From an uncultured Alphaproteobacteria bacterium (GTDB taxonomy: Bacteria > Pseudomonadota > Alphaproteobacteria > Rs-D84), in assembly GCA_944389645.1 (NCBI GenBank), contig CALXMZ010000023.1, positions 7,445-71,444 on the forward strand: a stretch of 64,000 bases of DNA, read 5' to 3'. Shown here piece by piece: positions 42,666 to 64,000 of the stretch. The position numbers and the translations under genes are program-made. Under the pieces are notes generated by a model that worked only from the letters and a program-made list of their open reading frames with translations, was not told where the DNA came from and did no database searches. Position 1 is the stretch's first letter. Each line of letters opens with the position of its first letter.

Positions 42666-42816
42666 AAATTTTGTATTTCCTAATTTATAATTTAATAAAA
42701 TTCTGATATAATATATCACAATGGTTGAAAAGTTCAAGATTTTATCAGCTGGTGGTACGTCTAAAGGTTTGAATATATTCAAATCTAGCGCATATAAAGA
42801 ACATCAGCGGAAACCA

Positions 42817-44940
42817 ATGGCGCAGATATTTTGGTCACTGCGTTGGGCTATTGGTATTTGGCTTGTATGTGCGCTGGCTTTTGCGTTGTCTTTCATTATA
42901 GAGCATATTTGGAGATATGGTTGGTCACCAGCAACTACAAAATGGACGCTTCTTTATTTGCACAATATGTTGTCTACAGGTGGATTATCTGTGCTTGCAG
43001 AGATTCCAGATTGGATAACGAGATCTGTTATGCGCACAGATCTAGCTTGTATGATGCCATTGATACCTATAATTGCTTATTATTTTATGGCGGATACAAC
43101 GTTGGTTAAAGAGTTTAATCCTTATGGCAAGGATAAATTTACGGAAAAATCTTCTAATAAGGCAACGAAAGAAGATATAGAAAAGATGGGGTTGTTTAAG
43201 GGTTTTATGATGGTTCTTGGGTATTTTAAAAAGAAACCATTGATGATGAATGAGTGTTTGTCGGCTTTATGCGTTGCTCCTCCGGGGACTGGTAAAACAT
43301 ATGGTGTAGTATTACCGACTATTTTTGACTGTAATACGGTATCAATGATTATAAACGACCCTAAACCAGAATTAAAACAAGTTTCATCTGCGTATCGTTC
43401 AACTGTTGGACCTGTGTTCATTATGAACTGGGCAGGTCAAGACGATCCAGAACGTGGTATATATTATCCGTCTTGGAACCCTTTATCACCAGAACATGTA
43501 CCGTTTGATACGGAACAGAGGGATTTATATATAGATTCTATATGTAATGTATTAGTACCAGACGTAGCGTCTTCTTCTGCTGACCCGCATTGGACTATAT
43601 CCGGTCGTGCTGGTTTATCTGGGTTAATCCAATTTATCGTATCAAAGGTAGAACGGGCTCGTGCAGATGATTATTTTTATTCACGAATAACTTCGGGGAC
43701 GTTTGATGAAGAGGACGCAGCTGTTTTATCAGATTATTATTTATCTATGATGAATGATCCAAATGCATTTGCTGCGCTTGCGTTATTGCAAAAAGGCGAA
43801 TTAAACGCGACTAATTATGTTCATATCGGGACTTGGGAAAAAATACCAGAGGCATGGGTGGGCAAGGAAGCTTCTTTATCCATGATTTTAGATTGGTTAA
43901 ATGCGAGTCAGATTAGTATAGCTCAGGATATGGAAGAACGGCGTCGTCAGGGGGATCAGATGGTTATGATGTCTGATCCGATGAAAGATTTATTTTTTAA
44001 TGCGGTAGAGGAAGCGCGTAATTACGCGTATGCACATAGATCTATCTTAGAATTGACTCAACTTGCGAATACACCTGATAAGGAACGTGGTTCAATTTTA
44101 TCAACTATTATGGCAGGGTTAGGTATATTCCGTAATGCTGCGGTTCGTAATAGAACAAGTCATTCTGACTTTCATTTTGAAGATTTACGTGGGTTAAAAG
44201 ACCCAAGTGACGGTAAAGTAAAACCAGTAACTGTATACTTGTCAATAAATATGGTTGATGCCCAAGCGTTGAATCCGATAACGGGGATATTTATTGAATT
44301 AATGAGTAATTATTTATTAGCAAATAGACCAGAATCTATTAATAATGGTAAGAAATTGGGGCCGTACCCTGTGTTGTTTGTATTAGATGAAATGCCGAAA
44401 ATGCAAAAGTTACAAGCCGTAATTCAGGGACCAGATCTTGGTCGTGGTCAGAAAATATCTTATTTGATTATAGGACAAGATCTACATCAGATTGCTGAAA
44501 AATATGGTAATGATGCGGCTGCGACTATAATATCTACGACTGCCGCGAAGATAGTTCTGCGTCAGAACGATCCTGATACGGCGAAACGTTTTTCTGACAT
44601 GATGGGTTATAAAATGAGCGTGAAGACAGTTAAGGGACCTGACGGTAAAGACAAAGAAGAAACGAAAGAAGAGTTATTATATACGCCAATGGATATAATG
44701 AAATTAGACGATAAAAAACAGCTTGTTATATTTCAGGGGTGGTACCATAGACCTATAGAAGCGGATAAACAAATGGCATTTAATGATCCTCGGCTTTCGG
44801 CTTATATGGCCATGGGTGAGTGCAGTCCATTACCGGAATTTCTGATACCTTCTCATCATGCGGCTTTGGGTTATACGGGTAAACCGAAAATATATATACC
44901 ACAAACGAAAGAATTAAAAGAAATAGAATTTATAAAATAA
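42817..44940 (+). CDS. virD4: type IV secretion coupling protein, VirD4/TraG family
   Basis: Two N-terminal TM helices; APPGTGKTYGVVLPTIFDCNTVSMIINDPKPEL (Walker A region); VLFVLDEMPKM (Walker B); C-terminal AAKIVLRQNDPDTAKRFSDMMG. Confidence 0.75.
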   Translation: MAQIFWSLRWAIGIWLVCALAFALSFIIEHIWRYGWSPATTKWTLLYLHNMLSTGGLSVLAEIPDWITRSVMRTDLACMMPLIPIIAYYFMADTTLVKEFNPYGKDKFTEKSSNKATKEDIEKMGLFKGFMMVLGYFKKKPLMMNECLSALCVAPPGTGKTYGVVLPTIFDCNTVSMIINDPKPELKQVSSAYRSTVGPVFIMNWAGQDDPERGIYYPSWNPLSPEHVPFDTEQRDLYIDSICNVLVPDVASSSADPHWTISGRAGLSGLIQFIVSKVERARADDYFYSRITSGTFDEEDAAVLSDYYLSMMNDPNAFAALALLQKGELNATNYVHIGTWEKIPEAWVGKEASLSMILDWLNASQISIAQDMEERRRQGDQMVMMSDPMKDLFFNAVEEARNYAYAHRSILELTQLANTPDKERGSILSTIMAGLGIFRNAAVRNRTSHSDFHFEDLRGLKDPSDGKVKPVTVYLSINMVDAQALNPITGIFIELMSNYLLANRPESINNGKKLGPYPVLFVLDEMPKMQKLQAVIQGPDLGRGQKISYLIIGQDLHQIAEKYGNDAAATIISTTAAKIVLRQNDPDTAKRFSDMMGYKMSVKTVKGPDGKDKEETKEELLYTPMDIMKLDDKKQLVIFQGWYHRPIEADKQMAFNDPRLSAYMAMGECSPLPEFLIPSHHAALGYTGKPKIYIPQTKELKEIEFIK

Positions 44941-47283: not shown

Positions 47284-47961
47284 TTATCTAGCAGGAGCCA
47301 ATTTAATTTCGACTCTTCTATTAGTTAGTCTTCCTATACTATCTTGGGCTGCGATAGGTCTTGTTGCCCCGCGACCGACGATAAACATTCTTGTCGGGTT
47401 TATGCCGTGCTGCGATAGGTATACACCCACTCGTTGAGCCATGTCTAAAGATAATGCTTTTGCAGCCTGTTGGTTCCCCATAGCATCTGTATAACCTGCG
47501 ATTTCTATAAATGTTGCATCGTATTTATTAAGAACTTTTGATATTATTTTTAATGTATCTGCACCTGTTTCTGATATATCAGCAACGTCTTGCTTCATGA
47601 TTGCATCGCGAATAAGTATTATTACAACTTCTGTCCCAGCTCTTTGAACAGATAGCCCAGGTTTTCGTAAAGAATCATACAATTCATATTCAAGGTCGGA
47701 CATATAATTTATGCTAACTGAATTGTCGTTTGCAATTTTATCGCCATATTCCATATTTTTTGTTTTTGTATTATTTGTTACAAGTTGCCCACCGGCACCT
47801 AAATATACAGGACGTTTTGCAATACGAGAAATCTCGTTCATATCCGTAAAACTTGCCCCATTTAAATAATTACCCCAAGTTGAACGATCAGGACTATGAT
47901 AATAAAAGCAGCCTGTTAATAATAAAAATGTACACAAAAAGATAATTTTATTTTTATACAT
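47284..47961 (-). CDS. OmpA/MotB-family peptidoglycan-binding lipoprotein
   Basis: Lipobox LLTGC; C-terminal IAGYTDAMGNQQAAKALSLDMAQRV...NRRVEI. Its ATG overlaps the pilin stop (TAATG). Confidence 0.75.
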   Translation of the reverse strand: MYKNKIIFLCTFLLLTGCFYYHSPDRSTWGNYLNGASFTDMNEISRIAKRPVYLGAGGQLVTNNTKTKNMEYGDKIANDNSVSINYMSDLEYELYDSLRKPGLSVQRAGTEVVIILIRDAIMKQDVADISETGADTLKIISKVLNKYDATFIEIAGYTDAMGNQQAAKALSLDMAQRVGVYLSQHGINPTRMFIVGRGATRPIAAQDSIGRLTNRRVEIKLAPAR

Positions 47962-48419
47962 TATTCAACTATAAAAGAAATTTTGTTTGTATCTGTTGAA
48001 AAGCAGTTCGTGTTTATATTTGTTTCTATGTCGTTTATTATTACTTTACTTGCCCAAGAATATTTTGCGGTAGCAAAATACTGACATTCTCCTTCTGATA
48101 AACCTGTTAAATTGATAGAGAAAGTAGATGTATCGCTTAACGGTTCTACGCTCCAATCAGAATCCCCAATAGGAGCTTTCTTCGTTTTTAAAGCACCAGC
48201 ATCGATCAAATAATCTAAAGATAAACCTGTATAATCTCCTTTTATTTTCATTAATATTTTCACATCTTTTGCAATTTGTTCTATTTGCATAGAAGCGATT
48301 TTTCTTTCCTGATTATTTTTTATTACGTTATATATACTTATTGCGCTTGCACTCATGACGCCAGCAATTGCTAAGACGCCTATTACTTCCAGTAATGATC
48401 TTCCGTATTCTTGTCTCAT
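47961..48419 (-). CDS. type IV pilin / pseudopilin-like protein (prepilin N-terminal cleavage/methylation domain)
   Basis: MRQEYG|RSLLEVIGVLAIAGVMSASAI: G-1, E+5 and a hydrophobic alpha1 helix. 152 aa with a C-terminal Cys pair (C...C). Confidence 0.7.
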   Translation of the reverse strand: MRQEYGRSLLEVIGVLAIAGVMSASAISIYNVIKNNQERKIASMQIEQIAKDVKILMKIKGDYTGLSLDYLIDAGALKTKKAPIGDSDWSVEPLSDTSTFSINLTGLSEGECQYFATAKYSWASKVIINDIETNINTNCFSTDTNKISFIVE

Positions 48420-50492: not shown

Positions 50493-51848
50493 ATGCAAAG
50501 GCAGAGTGGGAGTTTTTTATTACAGGCTTTGCTAGCTTTGGCTTTAATTTTTGCTTTTGTCCCGTTTTTCGCTCAGAAACTTGTGTCCAGAGATATTGAT
50601 GCTCAGATGTATTCTTCTACGCAAAAAGTAGAAACGGCTCAGACGGCGGCTAGAATTTTTATACAAGAACATGCTAATGATTTACCGTATAATACGACCG
50701 TTTTTTATGGTGAAGGTTTTTCAGATTTGTTAGAACCGTATGGTTTACCGCTGGGTTTTGTACCTCGTACTGCTTTAGGTCAAGATATTTCTTTGGTTGT
50801 TACGAAAAATGCTAATTCAGTGACGGCATATTTAAGATTAAACGGTGGGGATTTAAATAAAATGCAATTAGCTGAGTTAGTTCGGCGTATAGGTTTTTAT
50901 GCGTCTTTATCTGGTGATGAAATAATAGTCGGTTTGGGGTTAAATGAGGTTTATTCTGACGTTGTAAAAAGGAACGATAAAAATTTAGATGATAATGCTT
51001 TTTTAACGGATTTGAATATGGGCGGTTTTAGTCTTAATAATGCTGGCGATGTTTTTGCGCGTCGTGGTGAAATAGAAACGGGGCAGATTAACACCTTGTC
51101 TTTGTTCGGAGAGGAAAACGGTCGTAAGGTAAAAAATTCTATAGAGTTTTTGATATCAGAAAAAAGCGTTTTTCAGAGTCCTACAGGTGAAGCCGCGTTA
51201 TCATTATCTCGTGGTACGTTGTTAGTTGGTACTGTAAACGCTAAAACCGTATCGAAATTTGGTGATGCTGGAAATTTTACTTCTAATTCTGCATCTGTAT
51301 ATGATTTTGCTATGACTGCGGGTAGAAACAGTTTTTACGGCCCAGCCGATTGGTATGTCGGTGGAAGCGTAATTACTGATAATATTAATTTTAGTTTAGA
51401 AAGGTTGGAAATAAATTCTTATTTAAACGTTTCAAGGGGGCAGGACGTTTACATTGATCCGGATAGTTTAGAATATAGCACAAGAAGTGGTATAGAGGTT
51501 AGCAATATTTATGCATCAAATATAACGATGAGAGATCAGACTTCAGATGCTCTTAATGACGGTGAAACGGGAGCGATAATTTTAGATATTAGACCTGCGG
51601 GTACATCTTTGTTACCAGACGTGCTTTTGGATTCTATTGATAATTCTAGTTTTAAAATAATTAGTAAACCAGAAGCAGATACTTCTGACACAATAGATTG
51701 TCGATCTATAATAAATAAATTAGACGGTAACTACAATCAAAAATCTTTATCTCAGTATATAATATGTCAGTACGTATTTTGGCAAAGATTAGAAAAGCGT
51801 ATAAACATAAAACAGTGTTTAATGGAAGGTAAAAGTGGTTGCTTGTGA
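50493..51848 (+). CDS. giant pilin-like protein 1 (prepilin-type N-terminus with Q at +5; large C-terminal domain)
   Basis: MQRQSG|SFLLQALLALALIFAFVPF. 451 aa. Central LTDLNMGGFSLNNAG motif is shared with the two downstream paralogues. Confidence 0.7.
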   Translation: MQRQSGSFLLQALLALALIFAFVPFFAQKLVSRDIDAQMYSSTQKVETAQTAARIFIQEHANDLPYNTTVFYGEGFSDLLEPYGLPLGFVPRTALGQDISLVVTKNANSVTAYLRLNGGDLNKMQLAELVRRIGFYASLSGDEIIVGLGLNEVYSDVVKRNDKNLDDNAFLTDLNMGGFSLNNAGDVFARRGEIETGQINTLSLFGEENGRKVKNSIEFLISEKSVFQSPTGEAALSLSRGTLLVGTVNAKTVSKFGDAGNFTSNSASVYDFAMTAGRNSFYGPADWYVGGSVITDNINFSLERLEINSYLNVSRGQDVYIDPDSLEYSTRSGIEVSNIYASNITMRDQTSDALNDGETGAIILDIRPAGTSLLPDVLLDSIDNSSFKIISKPEADTSDTIDCRSIINKLDGNYNQKSLSQYIICQYVFWQRLEKRINIKQCLMEGKSGCL

Positions 51849-53031
51849 TATAAGATTTTTATCTAAAGAATCGAATGGTGCTAGCGTGCTAGAAGTATTA
51901 TTAGCTATGGCGATAATAGCTATGGCTACACCATTTGTTTATGACCATGTATCAGAGACGAATATGGCGTTGAAAGATATGGCAGAAGCAAAAAAAATAA
52001 TTGCTTTGCAGGACGACGTATTAAATTTTGTTCGATTGAACCAAGGTAATTGGCCAGAAGTTGCACAGATAAAACTATCTGAAGAAGAGCTTGATAGTAT
52101 ATCTGAAAAACCTTCTGTGTGTTTCGTTGATAAATATGTAATAAATGGAGGAAGCGTCACAGACGTTTATTTATCTTTTGATTTAAAAGATACGCAGTTA
52201 AGGGTATCGCGGATTGCAAAGCATATAGGAGCAGATGCGGCTGTTGTAGGTCTAGATGGTGTTGCGTATGGTGATTCTTGGGCAGTTGCGGCGCCAGAGT
52301 TTAAATATGGTGATTTGATATATAGAATATCCAAAGATATAGACGGTGAAGATAAAACGAAATATTTACATCGTACGGGTATGGGTGATGAGAATTTAAA
52401 CATGATGTTGCGTGATTTAAATATGGGGGGGAATAATATATTTAATGTTGGTGGTGTACAGTCAAAAACTTTAGAAATAAGGAACCTTGCGACACAATTT
52501 ATAGAAGTTGGTAACATAATGTCCGATGCAATATATTTTTCTTCTGGGGCTACTTTATACGGTGATACGGCCAATATAGAAAATTTGCGGGTAACAGGAG
52601 ACGTTTCGGGTTTTCGTAATATTTATGCTGATACATTAAACGGTGAAAAGTATACCACTAGGGGAAGTATAATAACGGATAGAGCCACAATAAATAATTC
52701 AGTTAATATATCGAATAATTTTATTTTAAAATCTGATGAAGCAAGAACGATAAGTGGTTTTACCGGTATAATTGCACATTCTGTAGATACTTCTTCAATT
52801 TCTGCAGAAGAGATCGTTTTTTATGAAGATTTTGGTTTAACGGTATCTGGGGAATTGTTGATGTCTACGACGGCTCCATTAAGAATTGGTAGTTGGACGT
52901 TTCCTTCTCTTACGCCACCTTCTTTTTATTATCTGGAGCTAAGTAGGGCAAAAATTCCAAGTCTTCCACCGGCAAATGAATTTGGTATAATTTTATCAGA
53001 AGGATGGCAGACGGCTGTACCCAAGGAATAA
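51835..53031 (+). CDS. giant pilin-like protein 2 (prepilin-type N-terminus, E at +5)
   Basis: ...SKESNG|ASVLEVLLAMAIIAMATPF; motif LRDLNMGGNNIFNVGG; 398 aa; GTG start overlapping gene 1. Confidence 0.65.
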   Translation: MVACDIRFLSKESNGASVLEVLLAMAIIAMATPFVYDHVSETNMALKDMAEAKKIIALQDDVLNFVRLNQGNWPEVAQIKLSEEELDSISEKPSVCFVDKYVINGGSVTDVYLSFDLKDTQLRVSRIAKHIGADAAVVGLDGVAYGDSWAVAAPEFKYGDLIYRISKDIDGEDKTKYLHRTGMGDENLNMMLRDLNMGGNNIFNVGGVQSKTLEIRNLATQFIEVGNIMSDAIYFSSGATLYGDTANIENLRVTGDVSGFRNIYADTLNGEKYTTRGSIITDRATINNSVNISNNFILKSDEARTISGFTGIIAHSVDTSSISAEEIVFYEDFGLTVSGELLMSTTAPLRIGSWTFPSLTPPSFYYLELSRAKIPSLPPANEFGIILSEGWQTAVPKE

Positions 53032-53033
53032 AT

Positions 53034-54356
53034 ATGAAACTATCAAAGTTTAAAAAATTTTATAAGGTAAAAGAACAATGTGGTAGCATGTTGATTGAGC
53101 TATTAATGAGTGTTGCTTTAGCCGCCGTAATTATGCCCTTTATTTTTAGATATCAAAAAAATGCAATTGTCAGAGCAGAAAATATAACGATTGCTCGTCA
53201 TATGGAGAATATTCAGAGTGCGCTGGAACGCTACATTTTTGAAAATAGAGAGGTTTTATTAAATACTGTAGGAAAAAATATTACAAGAGTAAATATTTCA
53301 GATTTGGTAGATTATGGTATTCCGATAGATTTTATTAATGAGTCAGGTAAAAATTATCAATTAAGAATTCTGAAATCGAATGATATAGATGGTAAGGCCA
53401 CGTTACAGGGGGTAGTGGTTTTTTCTTCCGAGGACGTTTCTCCATTAAGAACGCGTGAAATAGTTGCTTTAGGAGGGGATTCCATGGGGATCATAGAAGG
53501 TAATCGTGCTTATGGTACATTTGGTGCATGGCACGCAGACACGGTAGATCTAGGAGTAAACGTTGCTGGTGGTATAGTAGAAACAACGGCTGTTAATCGT
53601 GATAATGATTTATATTTATGGCGTGTACCATCTGAAAAGGATTCTGATGCGACAATGTTAACTGGTTTAAATCTGGGTGGGCATAACATAAAAGATACTT
53701 ATCTTTTCGGAGCTTCTTCGGTACAAATTGATGAGAATTTGGTTGCTGGTGCAATTGTAGCAAAGGATACGATATTTCAAAATAGAGTTACGATAGATAA
53801 AAATTTTGAAACAACGAATGCTACTGTATCGGGGATTTTATCGGCAGATTCTAGAACGTTAGAGGTTGTAAAAAGTTTTAATTTAGATGATACGGCAAAA
53901 TTTTCAAGTTTTACTACGAATGATTTGTGGGTAAATAATATGACGTTAGGTGGTCTTTCTGTTTATACAGAAGACGGTGGTCCATCTGTATTGAAAGTTA
54001 ATAATTCAATAGATATGACGGATGGAAGAATAGATGCGATGTATGTTACAGTTGGTTTTACAGGTTCTATTACTCCTAGGTTAGTAGTTTCGAATAGAAT
54101 AGAAGATTCTATTAATTCAAATTATTTTTGGGACGCAAGTATGAGGGAAGCTAAATTTTTTGATGTTTCTTTACAAGAATTGAATCGTATGGCAAGTGAA
54201 GTTGTTTATATTGAATCTGGGAAAAACACAGAATCTGGTAAATTATTTGAAGCTGTATCTATCAATAAAAATGCAACGGTTTCAGATTATATAAATGTGA
54301 TACAAGAAATCCAAAATAATGTAACTGTAAAATATAGAAAGTTGAATTTGGAATAA
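53034..54356 (+). CDS. giant pilin-like protein 3 (prepilin-type N-terminus, E at +5)
   Basis: ...KEQCG|SMLIELLMSVALAAVIMPF; motif LTGLNLGGHNIKD; 440 aa; AAGGAA RBS. Confidence 0.7.
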   Translation: MKLSKFKKFYKVKEQCGSMLIELLMSVALAAVIMPFIFRYQKNAIVRAENITIARHMENIQSALERYIFENREVLLNTVGKNITRVNISDLVDYGIPIDFINESGKNYQLRILKSNDIDGKATLQGVVVFSSEDVSPLRTREIVALGGDSMGIIEGNRAYGTFGAWHADTVDLGVNVAGGIVETTAVNRDNDLYLWRVPSEKDSDATMLTGLNLGGHNIKDTYLFGASSVQIDENLVAGAIVAKDTIFQNRVTIDKNFETTNATVSGILSADSRTLEVVKSFNLDDTAKFSSFTTNDLWVNNMTLGGLSVYTEDGGPSVLKVNNSIDMTDGRIDAMYVTVGFTGSITPRLVVSNRIEDSINSNYFWDASMREAKFFDVSLQELNRMASEVVYIESGKNTESGKLFEAVSINKNATVSDYINVIQEIQNNVTVKYRKLNLE

Positions 54357-54375: not shown

Positions 54376-54876
54376 ATGAAAACAGTATGTGACTTTTGTA
54401 AAACAGAATATTCGTTGGAATCTTTTCCGAAAGGTGCGGTTAAATGTGCCGTATGTGGTAACGTTTGGACGGTTGTAAAACCCATAAGGAAGAACGCTTT
54501 TTTGACTTTTATAGCAGCATTGTGTGCGTTACTTGCAGCAATTGTTTTTGCTGTTGTAGCTGTTACGAAGCATCAGATAAATGTAATAGAAAAAGAACCG
54601 TTAGTTGCAGAAATTCAAGAAATAAATACGATAAACGATGAAAATGGGAGGGAGCGTTTCGTTGTAAGTGGAATTGTTCGTAATCGTTCTGAGCATATTT
54701 ATGGGGCTCCGAACCTTATAATAAATACATATGATGAAAATGGTAAAATAATAGACAGACAGAAATTTTTACCTCCTGCAACGTTATTAGATTCTGGGTC
54801 AGTTGTAAACTTTGGGCATATTTTATCTGTGCCGACTCAGAACGTAAAAAAAATTTCGGTTGAGTTAGAAAATTAG
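54376..54876 (+). CDS. MJ0042-type zinc-ribbon / DUF3426-like membrane protein
   Basis: MKTVCDFCKTEY...VKCAVCGNVW (two CxxC) followed by a TM (FLTFIAALCALLAAIVFAVVAV) and a periplasmic domain. Confidence 0.65.
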   Translation: MKTVCDFCKTEYSLESFPKGAVKCAVCGNVWTVVKPIRKNAFLTFIAALCALLAAIVFAVVAVTKHQINVIEKEPLVAEIQEINTINDENGRERFVVSGIVRNRSEHIYGAPNLIINTYDENGKIIDRQKFLPPATLLDSGSVVNFGHILSVPTQNVKKISVELEN

Positions 54877-54885
54877 GGGGAGGTT

Positions 54886-55386
54886 ATGAAAAAGTCGTTA
54901 CTATTTATTTTCTGTGTTCATTTTTGTTTGTTTAGTGCTTTTGCGGCTGAGCATAAACCTAGAATACAGCCGCAGCAACCGCAGCAGCCACAACAGCCGC
55001 GCATAAGTATATTTTCGACAAGTACTGACTGGGAGGGGCTTACAGGTTTGTCGTATCATGAGTATCATGGTAAAATTACTCCATCTACGAATCTTGTAGG
55101 TAATAAGGGTTTGGTATTGTATTACTTAGATGGTTTTCCTTGTTACGGGCTAGGCGAGGGTGTTAGAGTTTGGTTGGGGCCGAATGATAAACATGATGGA
55201 GAGCTTCGTATTGCATGTATTTATCCGCCAAAAGAAATAAAATTCACATGGAGAAACGCAACTCGTGATGCAGACGAAGCTGTTAGTACTGGTTTGTTGG
55301 TATGCTCAGTTGAAGACGATGGCAGAGAATTAAAAATAAATTTATCGGATTGTAAAAAAGGTGAAAACTGGGAAGATTATAAATAG
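54886..55386 (+). CDS. secreted hypothetical protein with a PQQ tripeptide repeat
   Basis: Signal peptide; PQQPQQPQQP; 6 Cys. Confidence 0.55.
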   Translation: MKKSLLFIFCVHFCLFSAFAAEHKPRIQPQQPQQPQQPRISIFSTSTDWEGLTGLSYHEYHGKITPSTNLVGNKGLVLYYLDGFPCYGLGEGVRVWLGPNDKHDGELRIACIYPPKEIKFTWRNATRDADEAVSTGLLVCSVEDDGRELKINLSDCKKGENWEDYK

Positions 55387-56354: not shown

Positions 56355-56424
56355 AATTATTAATATTTTTTCTAAAAATTATGATGATCAGATAGATATT
56401 TCCCTTTATCAAAAAATATTTTTA

Positions 56425-56433
56425 TGTTATAAT
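56425..56433 (+). promoter_or_regulatory. putative extended -10 element (TGtTATAAT)
   Basis: It lies 27 nt upstream of the ATG at 56460; GGAG RBS at 56448-56451. Confidence 0.35.
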
Positions 56434-56459: not shown

Positions 56460-59400
56460 ATGAGTCTTCTAAAAAAAACGATTGGATTTTTAGCTGTTTG
56501 TAGTGCATTACCAGAAGCTTTTGCTTTAACTGCACGTCCCAGTGTTATTGGTAATGCATCAATGCGTATGCCGACTATGACGGCATATAATTCAGGAAGT
56601 ACGTCTTCGACAACGACATCAAATTTGTTGGAAAATTCAGAATGTATAGATGCGTATACCAGTTGCTTAAAGGGTAGTGATGTTTGTGGAAATGATTTTG
56701 AGGAATGTACAAACAAAACTTTGTTTTTTTCTAAAAGACCATTGTGCTCAAGTACTTTATTGCAATGCAGTACTTCTGGTATAAATGCGTTGTTCGGAAC
56801 CAGCAACCAAACATTGTTTGCGAATAAAGATTCTGATGATGAGTATGTTTATCCTACAGATGGTAGTGTATTGGGGCAGTTGATAGAAGCAGCTTCAATT
56901 AGCAATCGTTATGATACAAGTACGTGCGTTAAAAGGTATACAAGTTGTTTAACAAAATCTGACGTTTGCGGTTCTGATTTTGAATTATGTACAAGTAATA
57001 CAGAATTTAAGAAACAAAAATTGTTTTGTGAATCTACGTTAGCTCGTTGTCAGTCAGAGGGGATTCAAGAGTTATTTGGTACAACAAGTACTGCATCTAA
57101 CCCCACAAGTAACAGTCGTATAGGTATAATGATTTCAGAAGGTGCTGCACTTGCGGCAGTAAACGCAGTTTCTACTTGTTATAAAGTTATTGATCAATGT
57201 TTCTTAAATGCCTGTGCTACGAACCCGTATAAGTGTAAAGAAGGGAGCTCACAAGAAATTATAAAATATGTAGAAAATGTAAATAATACAGATGGTACTT
57301 TGATAAGTACGGCGACAAATGATCTAGTTCAAACTACAATTAGTCGTAACGAAGTTTCAGGGTTTATAAAAAATTCGTGTTTGGATACGATAGGTTCAAA
57401 TAAATATTGTTATGCCACGTTTTTGGGGAACGGAGTAATGCCTTCGAATGCGCAGTTGCGTGATGCGGATAATCAAGATGAAATTTATTCTGAAGCATAT
57501 TCTTCTAGAATGAACGATTCTATGCGTGCAAAAATAGATGATTTAATAGAACAATTTGACAAAAAAGTTAAAGAGCGTTGTTCTGAAACCATTGTTTCTT
57601 GTGCAATGCGTGCTTGCGGTGAAGGAAGTGGAGCTGCATGTTATGCTTCTGCTTTTAATAGTGCTAATAAAGTAAAAGGTGTTACAAATCCTTCTACTAT
57701 GGAAGGTATAAAATTAGGTTGTGAAGCTTCTGTAAATAATGATACTGCTTGTCAATATGCTGCAGCTACATTTGATACTGCAACTGGGGCTTTAATATTT
57801 GAAGAAAATAGTTTGTTTGATAAATTATTTACTGCTCCGGATGATACAGATGCTAAAAATCCAGATCCTGTTGGTGCGGTTGCAACTTTAAACGCAAGAT
57901 TATCTACTTCTTATAATCAGGCAGCTTTAGATCAGATGAAAAAGCAATGTCAATCAATTGCGACAAGTTGCGTTAAATCTATGTGCGGAACAGATTATCA
58001 AAATTGTTATCGTAATCGTACGGATATATATTCTACATTAACAAACACAGGTAATGATAATTTTGATAAAAGTATGAACAAGGTTGGTGGCGTGTTAGAT
58101 CATACGATTGTTTTAGGATTGTGCTTAAATACTGTTAAAAATAATTCTGTATGTGAAGAACATATAAAAGCTGAAATGGCGAGGAGTTCCGCAAATTCTT
58201 CTTATAATGTTAATTCTTGGGGAAGCGGTATAACAAGTGCCAGAGAAGGTTGGTTGGATGCCGGTAATTATAGCATTACTGCAGAAGTTCAAGATATCGA
58301 TGCTGATGGGAATTTATTATGTACTACTGCAGAAAACGGTGATGGTGTAGAGGGGCGTTGCGATGATGCCAGTGGACAATATATATATCCAAAGATGGTT
58401 TCTCAGACAACGTACGCAGAAAATCTTGCTGAAAGACAAGTTTTTCGTGATTTGATTTCGGATTTGGAAATGGAAGCTCAGGCAAAATATAATGCGAAGT
58501 TAACTAAACAACAGAATATGTGTATGTCTGGTAATGCTGGTGGTATAATCGGCAATAAAGACATGGGCAGTACATATATGTGGGTAAAACTTAAAAATAA
58601 TAAGATACCTTCAAATTATACGGTTAACGGTCTAACTTCTGATAGTTTCGTTGCAAGTAACGATTTGTATGGTTCATTCTGCCGTATACGTATAACAATA
58701 CAATCTGATGATAAAACGATACAGGAAGCTATACGTGCTGGAACGGATTGGGCGACGGCTTATTTTGCAGCAGGTGATTCATTTACTTGTGGAAGCTGGA
58801 TACCTGCAAGCGTATTAAATACTTTAAGTCAATCTGTAGGGGATGCTGCAAGAGCAGATGCTAAAGATTCTCAAGTCAGAGCGTTGCAGTGGATTATGCC
58901 CTTAATAGGTACTGTCGGTGGTACTGTTGGTGGTGCTTACTTAGGAAGCGGTATTCAACAGGGTAAAATTTTATCCGGCTTAACAGGTAAATCTAATAAT
59001 TCTAACAGCTCCAATGTTAACAAAGAAACTTTGAGTAAAAATTGTCAGGATTCATTAACAGAAGCTAAGTCAAATGCCAATAGCGGTGATATAAATACGT
59101 TAAATAGAAATACTCAGCTTGCGGTTGCTTATGCAAAAGAATTGGGGGTTCATCAAGACTATTTGAATGATTTGACAACTGCTTATACAAAAATGAGTTC
59201 TGTTTATAATAATCAGGGTGAAATGAAAGATGATGAATATTCTAAAGCCAAAGAAGATGCAAAAACAGATTATTTAAATAAGTTAGAAGATTTAAATTCT
59301 CAGTGTAAGATATATGCTATATCTGAAGATTCGTCAAATAAGGATGATAAACAACACAAAGTTGCGACAGGTGTAGGTGCGGCTGTTGGTGGTGTCTTGG

Positions 59401-59573
59401 GTGGTGTATTAACTTGGGGAATTACCAATACTATTCAAGAATCAAAATTAGATTCCGCAGAGCGTGCCGCAATAGATGAATGGATGGCCAATGTCGGTAA
59501 TCATATACGTTGCTACATCGGAGCAGATGAAATCGGAGTATATGGTGATACCATAAGTACAAGTATGGAATAA
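56460..59573 (+). CDS. large secreted cysteine-rich protein (about 1037 aa) with an internal 94-aa tandem repeat and two glycine-zipper hydrophobic segments
   Basis: Signal peptide ...CSALPEAFA. Repeats ECIDAYTSCLKGSDVCGNDFEECT... and TCVKRYTSCLTKSDVCGSDFELCT.... GTVGGTVGGAYLG and GVGAAVGGVLGGVL segments. Confidence 0.7.
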   Translation: MSLLKKTIGFLAVCSALPEAFALTARPSVIGNASMRMPTMTAYNSGSTSSTTTSNLLENSECIDAYTSCLKGSDVCGNDFEECTNKTLFFSKRPLCSSTLLQCSTSGINALFGTSNQTLFANKDSDDEYVYPTDGSVLGQLIEAASISNRYDTSTCVKRYTSCLTKSDVCGSDFELCTSNTEFKKQKLFCESTLARCQSEGIQELFGTTSTASNPTSNSRIGIMISEGAALAAVNAVSTCYKVIDQCFLNACATNPYKCKEGSSQEIIKYVENVNNTDGTLISTATNDLVQTTISRNEVSGFIKNSCLDTIGSNKYCYATFLGNGVMPSNAQLRDADNQDEIYSEAYSSRMNDSMRAKIDDLIEQFDKKVKERCSETIVSCAMRACGEGSGAACYASAFNSANKVKGVTNPSTMEGIKLGCEASVNNDTACQYAAATFDTATGALIFEENSLFDKLFTAPDDTDAKNPDPVGAVATLNARLSTSYNQAALDQMKKQCQSIATSCVKSMCGTDYQNCYRNRTDIYSTLTNTGNDNFDKSMNKVGGVLDHTIVLGLCLNTVKNNSVCEEHIKAEMARSSANSSYNVNSWGSGITSAREGWLDAGNYSITAEVQDIDADGNLLCTTAENGDGVEGRCDDASGQYIYPKMVSQTTYAENLAERQVFRDLISDLEMEAQAKYNAKLTKQQNMCMSGNAGGIIGNKDMGSTYMWVKLKNNKIPSNYTVNGLTSDSFVASNDLYGSFCRIRITIQSDDKTIQEAIRAGTDWATAYFAAGDSFTCGSWIPASVLNTLSQSVGDAARADAKDSQVRALQWIMPLIGTVGGTVGGAYLGSGIQQGKILSGLTGKSNNSNSSNVNKETLSKNCQDSLTEAKSNANSGDINTLNRNTQLAVAYAKELGVHQDYLNDLTTAYTKMSSVYNNQGEMKDDEYSKAKEDAKTDYLNKLEDLNSQCKIYAISEDSSNKDDKQHKVATGVGAAVGGVLGGVLTWGITNTIQESKLDSAERAAIDEWMANVGNHIRCYIGADEIGVYGDTISTSME

Positions 59574-59593
59574 TTGATCTTTAGCTAGGAAAG

Positions 59594-59619
59594 AAAAACC
59601 GCCTTTAAAGGCGGTTTTT
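59594..59619. terminator. hairpin terminator with A-run/T-run flanks (potentially bidirectional)
   Basis: aaaaaccgcctttaaaggcggttttt. Confidence 0.65.
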
Positions 59620-61405
59620 ATCTATATCCACGTGAATTTAATTTATTCTTTAAGAAATTTATTTTAGCAATAATCGTATTATAGTTTGGGGTTTTATAAA
59701 ATAGATTTTTTGAAATTTCGTCAATTATTTTATATACCTGTTTTGAAGAATAATTGTTTAATATGAAGTATAAATCTTCCCAAGATTGATATAAAATCGT
59801 GTTCAATATTTTCTTTTCTTCGGTTTTTCTGTTATAAGCTTTTTTATTTATCGTGATTGCACCTACGTCTATTATTGTGTTGCCAAAGCGATTACGAATT
59901 TCATTAAAGTCGTACAGACTAAAAAATTTAAACTGCATAAAATAATTTTCTGGTATTTTATCAATTTTACCATATACATATGGTTGTATTATATATCTTT
60001 CACCTCGTTGTGTGCTAATCCCTGCAGTAAAGATTTTATTGAATTTTATTTTCCCCATATATTTTTTCCCAGATAATAAAAAGGAATTTTGAGTTATTGT
60101 ATCATGTGCCCATGTACTTATATATTGATTATCTCTATCAGAATGATAAGTTTTCCACACATACTTTTGACCGTTTATAAATTTTATTACATAATTTTTT
60201 GTAAAGTTTCCAGAAGATAGATATTCTATCTTTGCTTTCTTTCCCGTGATTTTTAATATATCCGCTTCTAATTTTTCTATTGCTTTTTTTACGCAGTCAA
60301 TAGTGTGCAAATTATTTTCTGTTGTATAAGTTTTTATACTGGCTCTGCGAAAAGCTTGGTGTAAATCGGTGGTCGCTTTTTTTATATTAGAGCTAGGCAA
60401 TCCTTTTAACCATTCGTATGGAAAGCAGCCGGGGTTTTGGTAACCTTGAAAAGCCATTTCAGATAGTTCCATAAAGCTTACCGGATGTCTCTTTAGCAGG
60501 TGCGTTGTTTTTTTCTTTACTTCTGTATAAGATTTGTTTCGTGAAAAAATCTTTTTTATTAATTTCTCAATGGAAACACCATGTAATTCAAAAGTATCAA
60601 TGCTTGCATAAGGGTATTTGGATAGCATAAAGTCAAGATTTTTTATAACTACAGGTAATATCTTTGTATAGTTTCGTAATTTTTCTCTGGTTATATTGTT
60701 AATTTTGTTTTCTTCCGATAATGTTGCATTTAAAGAGTTAAATAGGATGTTTTCTATTCTATAAATATGCTTAAATTTCTCGTGTTTTGTTTTATAAAGC
60801 CATAAATGGTGTTTAAATTCATTAATTATAATATCTTTTTTGGCTTTGTTGATAGCTTCTCTTAAAGATAACCCTGTATATGTAAAATCTTTTATTTTTA
60901 TTGCATAATAAGTGCTACCACAGATATCTGTCTTATTAAAGTTTAAACGTTGTAATTCAATTATATTAATTCCGAATAAAGTACGTTTTGATTTTTCATA
61001 AAAACACATGTTTGCATATTTACCTATATTAAAAGTTTTTTGTCCGTTTTCTGTGTTTTTTATGATTGTCTTTAAATTGTTCGTTGCGAAAGGAGACCAC
61101 AATAAAATACTGCACCAATTACTTGGTATTTGTATTTTTTTTACATTAAAACAATTTGAGAAGGCATCGGAATTTACGTTTTTTATAGTTTCTCCGAAGA
61201 ATATTTCTTCTAGATTATGATTGTTGCAAAATACTTTATTTGATATTTCTGTTAAAGAATCTGGGAAAAAAATTTTTTTTAAGTTTTGTAAACCTTCGCC
61301 TACATTAGGAGAAATGCTTTTTACCGTATTTGGAATATAAAGTTCACCATCTTTCGTGAGATCTGAATCATTTATTGATATAAGAACGCCATTTTCTATT
61401 ATCAT
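59618..61405 (-). CDS. hypothetical protein with N-terminal BspA-type leucine-rich repeats; very low GC
   Basis: YIPNTVKSISPNVGEGLQNLKKIFFPDSLTEISNKVFCNNHNLEEIFFGETIKNVNSDAFSNCFNVKKIQIP. 595 aa, no signal peptide, K/N/I-rich. Confidence 0.6.
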   Translation of the reverse strand: MIIENGVLISINDSDLTKDGELYIPNTVKSISPNVGEGLQNLKKIFFPDSLTEISNKVFCNNHNLEEIFFGETIKNVNSDAFSNCFNVKKIQIPSNWCSILLWSPFATNNLKTIIKNTENGQKTFNIGKYANMCFYEKSKRTLFGINIIELQRLNFNKTDICGSTYYAIKIKDFTYTGLSLREAINKAKKDIIINEFKHHLWLYKTKHEKFKHIYRIENILFNSLNATLSEENKINNITREKLRNYTKILPVVIKNLDFMLSKYPYASIDTFELHGVSIEKLIKKIFSRNKSYTEVKKKTTHLLKRHPVSFMELSEMAFQGYQNPGCFPYEWLKGLPSSNIKKATTDLHQAFRRASIKTYTTENNLHTIDCVKKAIEKLEADILKITGKKAKIEYLSSGNFTKNYVIKFINGQKYVWKTYHSDRDNQYISTWAHDTITQNSFLLSGKKYMGKIKFNKIFTAGISTQRGERYIIQPYVYGKIDKIPENYFMQFKFFSLYDFNEIRNRFGNTIIDVGAITINKKAYNRKTEEKKILNTILYQSWEDLYFILNNYSSKQVYKIIDEISKNLFYKTPNYNTIIAKINFLKNKLNSRGYR

Positions 61406-61517
61406 GAATAGGAATTTTAGACATGTTTTTTATTTTGTCAATTATTTTTTTGTGCTTTTTTAATTTTTAACTTTTGTATATATTTTTTTTGTGTTAGAAT
61501 TAATTTTAAGAGAGAAT

Positions 61518-63494
61518 ATGAAAAAGCTTAATAGAGTTTTATTACTGTTTTTGTATTTATTGTCGGTTGATGCATTTGCCGATCCTGTTTCTACGACTCT
61601 TGGAAGCAATTTGACTGCGTATAATCCTACTTCTGGTTCAATAAACAACACAAATTGGAATAATTTTGTGAATGCTCGTTCTTCTGGTAGTTCAGCAAGT
61701 GCCCCAACTGCAGATTTTAGTAATTGTAATTCATTGATATTGCGCTGTACGCAACCGAAGTGTGCAAATGGTGGTTGTACGTCTATGGAAATTGCGCGCC
61801 CAATTGTATCTGGTTGTGTTGAGTCTAATGAAGCATGCAAAGAATATGGTGTTCAGTTGGTAGAAACGATCGCGGCGCAGTTGGTTGCAAATTCTACTGC
61901 AAAAGCAAATCAGAAGGTTGCAGAAGCTCAGGTCGCTGCGGCACAGGCTTCGGCACAGCAAAGTGCCCAACAGTTGCAACAAATGCAGACGCAGATGCAG
62001 CAAATGCAGGCCCAAATGCAACAACAAAGTGCCGAAACTGCGGCTCAATTACAGGCCGCATTAGCAGAACAGCAACAGTTAACGGCTCAGGCTATTGCTC
62101 AAGCTAACACTGCCGCACAGTCTGCATCTTTAAGTTCTGGTTCTTCGAAAAATTCTGGTGGTTTAGTTTCTGATAGTATAAATCAGATTTCTGATTTGAC
62201 GGGGGTTTCTGCCGATGCTTTATTGCGTGAACAGGTGTCTGGTGAAATATTAGCAAAAATAGAAAATGCAGAAGTTAATTTAAAAAAAGTTGAAGAATCT
62301 ATGAAAGATGCTTTTAATTATGCCGGTTGCGATTCTTCAGGTAATAATTGCACAGGACCGAAAAGAGTCAAAACGTTTAAGCAAAAAGCTATGAATTTTT
62401 TTGATCCGTATAATGCAGTTTTAGACGAATTATATGATGCATTAATTTTGGCTCAAACAGTTGGTGTTGATATTACCGATATTTATATGATGTTAAACGG
62501 AACTTGTAACGTTTGGGGACAGTATTTATGTGATGAAGGGCAGGTTATGCATTATAACAATGACAATTGCATAAATGGTCGTTCTGTTAATGTCACAACC
62601 GTAGAAGGGACTGTTCGTGGCGGTGCAGAATGTACTGTCGGGCAAGTCGTGCCTATGTCTGATGGTGGTTGTCAGTTGATAAAGATGTTAACTGATGAAG
62701 CAGAAGTAGAGCGTAATTGGTTGAATCCGAAAGGAGATGAAGATGGGGTACAAATCCGTGTAGGTTGTGCATCAGAATCGCTGGATAATTCAACATTGTT
62801 CCGTAATCGCAAGAAGCAGGCATCTATTGATATAGAGGTTTTGCAGCGTATGATAGAGCAAGATGCACCTTCTGTATTTGGTGGTGATCGCTTCGGACGA
62901 AATAAAAGTGCGAATCCAGATGGCGTAAAATATTGCGCTGTTGGATCTAATAGATATCAAGATTTACAAAAGAATGTTGCTTTAAAGACTTTACCGCAAG
63001 TCATATGTGTGGCAGATTCTGAGTTAGAATCAATTTATAATGAAGATACTTTGTTGACAAGTGTTAGTACAAGCTCAAAAACAAGTGTTTATAGTATATG
63101 CGGAAATTTAAGTAATAATAATTATAAGTATGATAAATGCATTTGTAACAACAGTCCTGACAAAAACTATACTCGTTGGGACGAAGGAAGTAATTCATGT
63201 AAGTGTAGTGGTGATAAATATGTTAATTTTGATATAGATTTGGCAAGGTGTGTTGATAAAAATGGTAAAACTCGCGCAGACGAGACGCGTTTGGAAGATA
63301 TAAGTTCTGTTGCAAACAAAAATTATTATTATGTACCGGAAAAAGCCTTTTTGATAGATTTCTGTTGGGATTATGAGAAATACGGTGCAAAATGGGATGA
63401 AAGCACTTCCTCGTGTGATTGTAGCGGGATATCAGAAGATAGGGTAAGATTAGTGTGTGAAAAACAAACATCTAGTGATTCTGCGAATAAATAG
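61518..63494 (+). CDS. secreted Cys-rich protein with a Q/A-rich coiled-coil segment; paralogous N-terminus to the 56460 protein
   Basis: Signal peptide MKKLNRVLLLFLYLLSVDAFA. LTAYNP compares with MTAYNS in 56460. AQQLQQMQTQMQQMQAQMQQQ low-complexity stretch; many Cys. Confidence 0.7.
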   Translation: MKKLNRVLLLFLYLLSVDAFADPVSTTLGSNLTAYNPTSGSINNTNWNNFVNARSSGSSASAPTADFSNCNSLILRCTQPKCANGGCTSMEIARPIVSGCVESNEACKEYGVQLVETIAAQLVANSTAKANQKVAEAQVAAAQASAQQSAQQLQQMQTQMQQMQAQMQQQSAETAAQLQAALAEQQQLTAQAIAQANTAAQSASLSSGSSKNSGGLVSDSINQISDLTGVSADALLREQVSGEILAKIENAEVNLKKVEESMKDAFNYAGCDSSGNNCTGPKRVKTFKQKAMNFFDPYNAVLDELYDALILAQTVGVDITDIYMMLNGTCNVWGQYLCDEGQVMHYNNDNCINGRSVNVTTVEGTVRGGAECTVGQVVPMSDGGCQLIKMLTDEAEVERNWLNPKGDEDGVQIRVGCASESLDNSTLFRNRKKQASIDIEVLQRMIEQDAPSVFGGDRFGRNKSANPDGVKYCAVGSNRYQDLQKNVALKTLPQVICVADSELESIYNEDTLLTSVSTSSKTSVYSICGNLSNNNYKYDKCICNNSPDKNYTRWDEGSNSCKCSGDKYVNFDIDLARCVDKNGKTRADETRLEDISSVANKNYYYVPEKAFLIDFCWDYEKYGAKWDESTSSCDCSGISEDRVRLVCEKQTSSDSANK

Positions 63495-63537
63495 AGAAAT
63501 TACAGGTAGCATGGCTATAAAGTTGGAATTAGGTAAA

Positions 63538-64000
63538 TGAAGTGTATAAATAAAATTTTTTCTGGTTTAAATATGCGAACTTCTGCGGTAGGGGGGGTAT
63601 TAAGTATTATTTTGAGTATAAGTGCACAGGCTGCAACAGATAATGGTTGTTCTATTAGCGGAAATGATCGTATTAACCCAGAAATAACTTTATGTAGTAC
63701 TCATGTGTATAATATTGGCGACGTTAAAAATCCCAGTAATGATGCAGATAAACAATTAATACGTGATGTTGTCGCGTTAAAATCAACTATAATGACTCAG
63801 CAATTAAAAAAGCAGTATGACTTTTTAGAAGCTACTATAAGTCGTTTTAAAACACAGTTACGTAAGGCAATTCTTTTGTCACAGTTAGAAGCAGCAGGTG
63901 CAACCACGTCTTCTTCTTCAAGCAGTTCTGCTTCTAGCGATAAAAATGTTGTTTTGAGCGGGGCAGAAAACTGTTTCTTAGAAACAACGCCTTCGAACGG
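63538..64000 (+). CDS. secreted Cys-containing protein, 3'-partial (runs off the window end)
   Basis: ATG with AGGT RBS; signal peptide ...SISAQAA; open frame to the end of the window; a serine run. Confidence 0.55.

Follow-up and report, generated by a model that had tools for sequence, protein, structure and literature searches.

Conserved surface proteins that carry a recombining variable cassette are already known, and hypervariable pilin regions and Opa/Msp2-type antigens are examples that are kept diverse by recombination. Disulfide-rich envelope proteins of host-associated bacteria include chlamydial OmcB (PF03504) and the Cys-rich Sel1-like proteins of Helicobacter, the latter built from disulfide-stapled helical repeats, and glycine-zipper lipoproteins such as Pcp/SlyB and the Rickettsia 17-kDa antigen (PF05433, PF13488) have GxxxG helices of moderate hydrophobicity. 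TraN of F-like plasmids is a Sec-exported, Cys-rich outer-membrane protein with more than 20 conserved, potentially paired cysteines, in which a conserved body carries a variable tip that sets partner specificity (PMC9246713). TcpF of Vibrio cholerae and CofJ of enterotoxigenic Escherichia coli are exoproteins of type IV filament machines; their genes lie near pilin genes, including those for unusually large minor-pilin-like proteins, and their Sec leaders are followed by a conserved disordered peptide (PMC9565799, PMC6048534). In this study, we analyzed a stretch of 64,000 nucleotides (hereafter the window) from an uncultured alphaproteobacterium of the order Rs-D84 (GCA_944389645.1, contig CALXMZ010000023.1, positions 7,445 to 71,444), which ends in three genes for exported, cysteine-rich proteins that we call P1, P2 and P3. 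Members of Rs-D84, or Candidatus (Ca.) Enterousia, inhabit the guts of humans, livestock, birds and termites widely, have genomes below 1 Mb, and lack respiration and most biosynthetic pathways, and a partner-dependent lifestyle has been proposed; the paper that describes them names only unspecified hypothetical membrane proteins (PMC12306168).

The reading that we favor, with a probability of roughly 50%, is that P1, P2 and P3 lie outside the cytoplasm as disulfide-stapled proteins of the envelope, with exposed recognition modules that can be exchanged on conserved scaffolds, and that P2 and P3 act together. The evidence consists of export signals, conserved cysteines, the lack of kinship among the three proteins, conserved synteny, P2-P3 gene fusion, cassette polymorphism and the sharing of alleles between species.

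TraN is the closest functional analogue. P1 and P2 likewise have a Sec leader, a predicted envelope location and at least 20 cysteines (38 in mature P1 and 26 in P2), a feature that is unspecific to TraN. Unlike TraN, they are predicted to be mostly helical rather than mostly beta and have no sequence or profile similarity to it, and the genes for P1, P2 and P3 are chromosomal core genes of one order with housekeeping neighbors and no F-type transfer genes nearby. With TcpF and CofJ the locus shares the nearby genes for pilins and large minor-pilin-like proteins, a conserved and apparently disordered peptide behind the leader (P1 residues 23-56, P2 residues 22-60) and the presence of TcpQ and a secretin in the clade. 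In contrast to them, P1 is three to four times larger, disulfide-rich by prediction and equipped with putative membrane anchors, and a profile search of the PDB found no homology at E ≤ 1. The two Gly-zippers of P1 recall the glycine-zipper lipoproteins, but P1 is no lipoprotein and its zippers are split by an insert of 90-270 aa instead of forming a tight hairpin; P1 had no Pfam match to PF05433 or PF13488, its orthologue P0099 reached 12.9 bits against a threshold of 25, and NCBIfam PRK11280 gave 14.3 against 99. For OmcB, the only match to PF03504 came from orthologue P0023 (E 0.053; 14.3 bits, cutoff 34.1), and no Sel1 match was found. Like the pilin, Opa and Msp2-type antigens, P1 has a sharp-edged hypervariable segment with several alleles per species and alleles common to different lineages; unlike them, it has no donor copy in the 64-kb window, and its cassette is predicted to be a disulfide-closed helical bundle, neither a beta-barrel loop nor a pilin D-region.

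Three separate families by sequence comparison

The genes at the window end are as follows.

56460..59573, forward strand: P1, an open reading frame (ORF) with a translation of 1037 aa; the ATG at 56460 is also the database start call
61518..63494, forward strand: P2, 658 aa counted from the ATG, or 667 aa if an upstream GTG is used
63537..64000, forward strand: 5' part of P3, 154 codons before the window ends; exported, about 240 aa when whole, with six conserved cysteines; the partner of P2
59618..61405, reverse strand: a BspA-type leucine-rich repeat (LRR) gene, 595 aa, PF13306 (LRR_5) E 1e-13, between P1 and P2 and convergent with P1

A product identical to the 1037-aa P1 is present in public assemblies, and a full-length P3 orthologue has 237 aa (L002:17073-17786). 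All three leaders, read from the sequence without a predictor, consist of a basic n-region, a hydrophobic h-region and an AxA site, with predicted cleavage at ...PEAFA↓LTARPS in P1, ...VDAFA↓DPVS in P2 and ...SAQA↓ATDNGC in P3. P1 has 39 cysteines (3.76%) and P2 has 26 (3.95%), the two highest contents among the 43 window ORFs of at least 200 aa (median 0.82%); the P3 fragment has four. A first-pass annotation, made from the sequence alone, had described three same-strand genes here with Sec leaders, a richness in cysteine and an LRR gene amid them, and all of this holds.

The same annotation had taken the three genes for consecutive paralogues from one expanded family. By all sequence comparisons made, P1, P2 and P3 are not paralogues but three distinct orthologous families. 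BLASTP among them detected no similarity (best E values 7.6, 0.08 and 0.27). For comparison with hhalign we aligned each family (P1, 48 sequences with identities as low as 22%; P2; P3, 19 orthologues) and obtained a probability of 4% for P1 against P2, 2% each for P3 against P1 or P2, and below 6% for profiles of P1 sub-domains against the N-terminal Cys module of P2. Hidden Markov models (HMMs) of the P1 modules matched only P1 orthologues, both in the window and in 83 related loci. The alignment that had been proposed as a check on the paralogue claim therefore speaks against it, as similarity is undetectable even by profile-profile comparison. The N-terminal block supposedly common to P1 and P2 (MTAYNS/LTAYNP) is invariant across P2 orthologues (L32, T33, A34, N36) and not kept across P1 orthologues, and so the likeness is a coincidence. 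Expansion of a single family finds no support either: there are three separate families, and P1 looks single-copy, as its 80 loci belong to 80 different contig accessions and no second P1-module ORF was present within ±10 kb of the P1 gene or in the 64-kb window.

Distribution and searches for known relatives

P1 has 941 homologues with at least 52% identity over the full length and, in a set of 1.84 billion representatives, falls into only 240 clusters at 50% identity. Scanning one genome per GTDB species, we found P1 in 232 species genomes, and the listed ones all belong to uncultured Alphaproteobacteria from the gut, under labels such as Ca. Enterousia and 'Rickettsiales bacterium', with the exception of one contig filed as Bacteroides fragilis. 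A circular metagenome-assembled genome of 958,618 bp is among the carriers. In the best 80 of the 232 species genomes, full-length P1 identity is 47-77%. The families are restricted to one clade, the order Rs-D84/Ca. Enterousia, which bears out the clade specificity proposed before; this range of identity and the low dN/dS values given below do not fit a fast-evolving novelty of one lineage. Several contigs with these genes are filed as Bacteroides fragilis, Lachnospiraceae or Muribaculaceae (L016, P0027, P0106), which is probably due to mis-binning.

A search of the literature found no paper on P1, P2 or P3, and in scans with Pfam, NCBIfam, PHROGs and PADLOC all matches to them were either below threshold or due to low complexity, with library matches to TFIIA and a portal protein falling on the Gln-rich coil of P2. 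Homology to a characterized enzyme family, which would also have spoken against the first-pass annotation, was absent in Pfam, NCBIfam and the PDB. A profile search of PDB chain sequences returned no relative; its matches to a designed binder and to XaxA/YaxA (E 0.1-0.3, on the C-terminal helices of P1) were judged coiled-coil noise. Comparison of the AlphaFold2 (AF2) model of P1 with PDB and BFVD gave nothing past generic helical bundles.

P1 carries a hypervariable cassette between two Gly-zippers

P1 consists of the following parts, all on the forward strand.

56460..56525, forward strand: Sec-type signal peptide, residues 1-22 (...PEAFA↓L), read from the sequence; hydropathy peak at residues 1-13
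56526..56627, forward strand: conserved, unstructured N-terminal peptide, [TA]-A-R-P-S-[VI] x5-8 R-[ML]-P-T, followed by an S/T-rich linker
56628..57089, forward strand: tandem of 6-Cys helical modules A1 (residues 57-115) and A2 (residues 150-210), C-x6-C-x6-C-x6-C-x12-C-x6-C
57132..58184, forward strand: helical modules B1-B3 of about 125 aa each, C-x6-C-x4-C-x6/7-C ... C-x9-C, with invariant cysteines
58515..58874, forward strand: beta-containing domain, residues ~686-805, with AF2 strands at 706-776
58875..59015, forward strand: Gly-zipper 1, residues 806-852 (W..xxGxxxGGxGG...LGGLxG), conserved in orthologues
59016..59345, forward strand: hypervariable cassette, residues 853-962, here a predicted four-helix bundle with an AF2 predicted local distance difference test score (pLDDT) of ~90
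59346..59435, forward strand: Gly-zipper 2, residues 963-992, GVGAAVGGVLGGVLTWGI, median 17-aa hydropathy 1.65
59436..59573, forward strand: conserved C-terminal helix and beta-hairpin (…EWMxxVGxxIxCYIGxxExGxYGDxIS…E-COOH), with C1018 invariant

The mature chain has 38 cysteines and is modeled as mostly alpha-helical (mean pLDDT 74.8). Cysteines account for 26 of the 32 invariant columns in the alignment of 48 relatives. A1 and A2 are clearly related to each other (hhalign probability 99.7%, E 1.5e-25), with lower probabilities for B1 and B3 (78%), B2 and B3 (70%) and A1 and B3 (82%). In the N-terminal peptide R26, R36 and P38 are at least 90% conserved, including in relatives at 25% identity, and residues 1-56 have pLDDT values below 50. 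The two zipper segments, GTVGGTVGGAYLG and GVGAAVGGVLGGVL, are kept in orthologues and have the form of GxxxG-repeat helices of moderate hydrophobicity (medians of the maximum 17-aa hydropathy 1.28 and 1.65); Gly-zipper 1 has pLDDT values below 50, and the Gly-rich segments on both sides of the confidently modeled cassette are of low confidence. The number of cysteines in the mature protein is even in 71 of 80 P1 orthologues, and that between the zippers (0, 2, 4 ... 10) is even in 72 of them.

We calculated ratios of nonsynonymous to synonymous substitutions (dN/dS) by the Nei-Gojobori method for 14-15 close species pairs. Whole-gene values were 0.11 for P1, 0.16 for P2 and 0.14 for P3, compared with 0.04 for dnaX, 0.07 for rluD and 0.06-0.07 for the pilin-like genes nearby. 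The three genes are under purifying selection, somewhat relaxed. In P1 the ratio was 0.03-0.10 in all regions outside the cassette (pooled dN 0.009-0.03, dS 0.29-0.33) and 0.48 in the cassette (pooled dN 0.26, dS 0.55). As dS rises along with dN, the cassette appears to be replaced rather than to undergo quicker substitution. The diversifying selection that the first-pass annotation had proposed to look for thus did not appear at the level of whole genes, and the cassette ratio is raised while staying below 1.

The segment varies in length from 89 to 274 aa among orthologues, and in species pairs with P1 cores at least 95% identical the cassettes have a median identity of 52% and a minimum of 13%. 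Along P1, nucleotide identity is 90-100% and falls to 0-45% in the cassette only, with sharp edges at the segments encoding the Gly-zippers. Within three clusters at 90% identity, which is roughly the species level, there are four to five cassette alleles (34-90% identical) per 15 sampled members, on cores that are 96-100% identical. Alleles are also found in more than one cluster: P0538 and P0564, from different clusters, have cassettes 97.9% identical on cores at 93.4%, and P0047 and P0080, from the same two clusters, have cassettes at 26% on cores at 92.2%. This pattern is the signature of a cassette replaced by recombination, with its alleles maintained across lineages, and not that of drift. 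Neither the P1 cassette nor the P2 tail has a second copy in the 64-kb window that blastn and tblastn could detect as a silent donor or template, which speaks against a local gene-conversion archive or a diversity-generating retroelement within this distance.

P2 and P3 probably form one unit and vary at their C-termini

P2 begins with an invariant N-terminal peptide (residues 22-60 are conserved, with pLDDT values below 50), followed by a 6-Cys module (residues 70-107), a Gln/Met heptad coil (residues ~108-215), a highly conserved central domain (residues ~229-497) and a variable tail:

63009..63491, forward strand: polymorphic C-terminal tail of P2, residues 498-658, made of small W...C.C modules

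The low-complexity Q/A/S-rich stretches reported before are present, but the Q/A stretch of P2 is a conserved heptad coiled coil and not filler, because its Gln/Met pattern is invariant in P2 orthologues (Q148, Q152, M156, Q157, Q159, M160). A 21-nt tandem repeat of 2.6 copies (61971..62024) encodes these heptads. The tail measures 68-223 aa across species and contains one to three W...C.C modules, or is swapped for a fused P3. In two of the three 90%-identity clusters, differences within the cluster peak in the tail at 41-47%, compared with mostly 0-3% elsewhere in P2; in the third the tail is only mildly raised (6-11%).

P3 has a C-terminal domain of at least three types, whose distribution is at odds with species relatedness. 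The domain in L038 is 69-70% identical to those in L002 and L005 although the P1 cores are only 57% identical, and 27-32% identical to those in L020, L022 and L045 although the P1 cores are 77-81% identical. The P2-P3 pair lies downstream of P1 in 28-29 loci. P2 adjoins P3 in 28 of 28 loci and forms a single ORF with it in seven of these; such fusion points to a shared function, and since the two are always adjacent and at times fused they probably constitute one working unit. The first-pass idea of an exposed interaction surface is thus sustained in that within-species polymorphism, which such a surface would be expected to show, is present in one segment of each of the three proteins.

A model of conserved scaffolds with exchangeable modules

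In the model that we favor, P1, P2 and P3 would be exported by the Sec route and then stabilized by many disulfides, and in each, strong purifying selection would preserve a scaffold to which a single polymorphic module is joined, the latter being swapped wholesale by recombination. These modules would be the helical cassette between the zippers in P1, the tail of small Cys modules in P2 and the C-terminal domain types in P3, with several alleles of each kept at once, within and across species. The conserved parts may reside in the periplasm or on cell-envelope machinery. From the sequences we infer that disulfides form, how the proteins lie in the membrane, that they are exposed at the surface and what role they have. 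The even cysteine counts suggest that the cysteines are paired and thus that the whole P1 chain, including the segment between the zippers, is in an oxidizing compartment. An in-out-in topology in the inner membrane is disfavored because the inter-zipper segment keeps paired cysteines; the candidate topologies are then insertion into the outer membrane or no insertion. The zippers themselves are where the first-pass annotation saw them, near the P1 C-terminus, and the membrane anchor it proposed for them survives in a form in which the inner membrane is unlikely. If the pair is embedded in a membrane, the outer one is more likely, with the variable bundle facing outward, because only the cassette is under diversifying pressure and the N-terminal 800 residues evolve as would be expected of a structure that is protected and bound to a partner.

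The variable modules would be the surfaces that meet the outside world and could provide specificity for the partner cells on which these bacteria supposedly depend. Alternatively, they could be targets of phages or host antibodies, with their diversity kept by frequency-dependent selection. A more detailed picture, which we regard as tentative and rather unlikely in all its parts, has P1 as a new type of surface display device with a periplasmic disulfide-stapled helical stalk, a zipper pair in the outer membrane and a swappable four-helix cassette outside; its alleles, together with the polymorphic P2 tail and P3 domain, would pass between Rs-D84 species and set partner-cell attachment or susceptibility to phages or antibodies, in concert with a pilus of giant pilins.

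Several points weigh against the scaffold-and-module model. The proteins have no homologue of known function, and localization, disulfides and topology are read from sequence. Positive selection is not demonstrated, the pooled cassette dN/dS of 0.48 not exceeding 1. The AF2 model of P2 is poor (pLDDT 57). The Gly-zippers stay below Pfam thresholds (the best score, 12.9 bits, is that of an orthologue) and may be mere flexible linkers, and helical anchors in the outer membrane are uncommon. The species pairs are phylogenetically non-independent, so that the effective sample is smaller than the parity and identity counts suggest, and the apparent single copy of P1 is judged from contigs.

Neighboring genes and a possible link to type IV pili

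Upstream of P1 lie several genes with features of type IV pilus components.

50493..54356, forward strand: three pilin-like proteins, 398-451 aa, with prepilin-like G↓xxxxE/Q N-termini (…SG↓SFLLQ, …NG↓ASVLE, …CG↓SMLIE)
54376..54876, forward strand: ZitP-like protein with Zn-ribbon, transmembrane and DUF3426 parts; the matches to Zn_ribbon_4 and DUF3426 are both below Pfam gathering thresholds
54886..55386, forward strand: 166-aa exported protein with a PQQPQQPQQP repeat after the leader and seven cysteines, of no family
47961..48419, reverse strand: 152-aa candidate type IVb major pilin between ompA and dnaX, with a G↓RSLLE motif and a C-terminal Cys pair

The order ompA, small pilin and dnaX, then the three large pilin-like genes, the ZitP-like gene, the 166-aa gene, rluD and P1, is found in ~70 of the 83 loci, and the 166-aa gene keeps its place between the ZitP-like gene and rluD in 74. 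The three pilin-like proteins have an 'L.DLNMGG..I.N' motif in common, are 54-61% identical across the clade and belong to no Pfam family, with weak matches to GspI/ComG; by analogy with the large minor pilins of type IVb/Tad systems, they may form a pilus-tip complex. Caulobacter ZitP is a polarity and pilus-biogenesis factor whose DUF3426 domain is needed for pilus biogenesis (PMC5182063). The candidate major pilin scores 20.3 bits with PilS_N, near the cutoff of 22. A TcpQ-secretin pair belongs to the core loci of the clade and is very conserved (72-77% identity), and in one distant relative a P1 homologue (34% identical) lies directly upstream of TcpQ and the secretin on the same strand (L086:9754-16083).

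In another relative (L088:9048-19451) a secretin gene is followed by one for p592 (592 aa, 36 cysteines), which has repeated W..C.C modules like those of the P2 tail. Close by are p282 (L088:14931-15779; 282 aa), a robust paralogue of the part of P1 that comprises the beta-domain and Gly-zipper 1 (49.8 bits, conditional E 7.5e-18), and the Cys-rich p293 (293 aa), which over its final 94 residues has 65% identity with the end of p592. The C-terminus of P1 has a weak colinear match to those of p293 (20 bits) and p592 (12 bits). The clade thus has a broader repertoire of exported Cys-rich proteins with modules in common. Short matches from the search of representatives, considered as paralogues with the P1 C-terminus, turned out to be truncated P1 orthologues.

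P1, P2 and P3 are possibly linked to these pilus genes. They might be exoproteins of a type IV filament machine (a type IVb pilus or a system like type II secretion) in the manner of TcpF and CofJ, in which case their N-terminal peptides would be the signal for docking on a large minor-pilin tip complex, after which the pilus would drive the proteins out through the secretin. The conserved disordered peptides of mature P1 and P2 would suit this, and there is a precedent in an N-terminal type IVb pilus secretion signal that binds a minor-pilin trimer (PMC9565799). The three 400-450-aa pilin-like genes and the ZitP-like gene upstream of P1 (a matter of synteny only), the candidate major pilin, the TcpQ-secretin locus of the clade, its position next to P1 in the 34%-identical relative and the L088 secretin with its neighbors sharing P1 and P2 modules all point the same way. 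However, the housekeeping gene rluD separates the pilin genes from P1, synteny is generally conserved in such small genomes, and in two further distant lineages the P1 homologue follows miaB and ybeY-lnt. No solved structure resembles the proteins in sequence, TcpF and CofJ being covered if deposited, and the DNA examined revealed no pilus ATPase, platform protein or prepilin peptidase. The Gly-zippers and the C-terminal return strand suggest that P1 is retained or anchored rather than released. We consider the exoprotein explanation possible but doubtful.

Other explanations

P1, P2 and P3 could instead serve as structural or scaffold proteins of the periplasm and take no part in recognition, their variable segments being unconstrained, fast-drifting linkers. 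The strong conservation of the scaffolds, a cassette dN/dS below 1 and the wide range of cassette lengths agree with this. Drift, however, cannot produce a cassette 98% identical on cores at 93% while sister strains differ by 60-75%, the breakpoints are sharp, and the parallel rise of dS and dN indicates replacement; moreover, the cassette retains paired cysteines and a confident helical-bundle prediction. These proteins are thus unlikely to be inert.

That P2, perhaps with P1, is a TraN-like mating-pair stabilization protein of a type IV secretion system (T4SS) is suggested by UniRef, where the P2 orthologues P0205 and P0580 are labeled 'IncF plasmid conjugative transfer protein TraN', by the Cys-rich body and variable tip of TraN described above, and by a gene for a VirD4/TraG-type coupling protein at 42721-44940. 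Yet P2, the fused P2-P3 protein and four orthologues have no match to PF06986 or TIGR02750 at E ≤ 1, tblastn found no match at E ≤ 1 in 72,556 plasmids, there is no PDB sequence match and Foldseek gave none below E 1 (with the P2 model at pLDDT 57). In the window, the surroundings of P2 have no identified F-type tra genes, none of its direct neighbors matches a T4SS family, and P2 is predicted to be largely a helical coiled coil, unlike the mostly beta TraN (PMC9246713). A TraN-like function is highly improbable, and the TraN label of the P2 orthologues was unsupported by HMM and plasmid searches.

One expanded lineage-specific family holding all three genes, as first proposed, has in its favor the similar composition, leaders and Cys density, the similar Cys spacing in the first modules of P1 and P2 (C-x6-C ... 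C-x12-C-x6-C) and the sharing of modules among other Cys-rich proteins in related genomes, and with every pairwise and profile comparison failing, and the P1-module HMMs confined to P1 orthologues, it is refuted at profile-profile sensitivity and has next to no chance of being right.

Significance

A conserved surface protein with a recombining cassette is in itself nothing new; in our searches, however, we found no described family for the three proteins, for their apparently disulfide-stapled helical modular build or for the layout of a cassette between two zippers. That every species keeps a 1037-aa P1 and about 900 aa of P2 plus P3 in such tiny genomes suggests that they serve something central. 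The three proteins are candidate contact or recognition determinants for Rs-D84, their exact variable segments are usable as strain markers in metagenomes, and the link to an unusual set of type IV pilus genes is testable. The analysis also corrects a misleading public annotation as TraN and shows that reading the genes as a paralogous family was wrong.

Other features of the region

The LRR gene, which had been counted with the others in a surface-protein set, is present in only 20 of the 83 loci, has the lowest median identity of the locus (36%) and lacks a signal peptide; the GC content around it (60001-62000) is 31%. It looks like an accessory insert and not a member of the P1/P2/P3 set, and its product could be an accessory effector-like protein. 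Promoter and terminator scans of the region gave counts that match the shuffled expectation, and the sole plausible promoter site is a TG-extended -10 element at 56406-56433, upstream of P1. Scans for Rfam families, tRNAs and tandem repeats detected nothing in the region save the 21-nt heptad repeat within P2.

Two further genes lie elsewhere in the window.

42721..44940, forward strand: the VirD4/TraG-type coupling protein (PF02534, 165 bits), amid housekeeping genes about 12 kb upstream of P1
24145..24792, forward strand: an OmpA-domain protein with an N-terminal glycine zipper, a genuine Gly-zipper envelope protein from the same genome as P1

Apart from the coupling protein, no T4SS component was recognized in the window ORFs that were scanned. 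The zipper of the OmpA-domain protein passes the Pfam threshold for PF13488 (34.8 bits).

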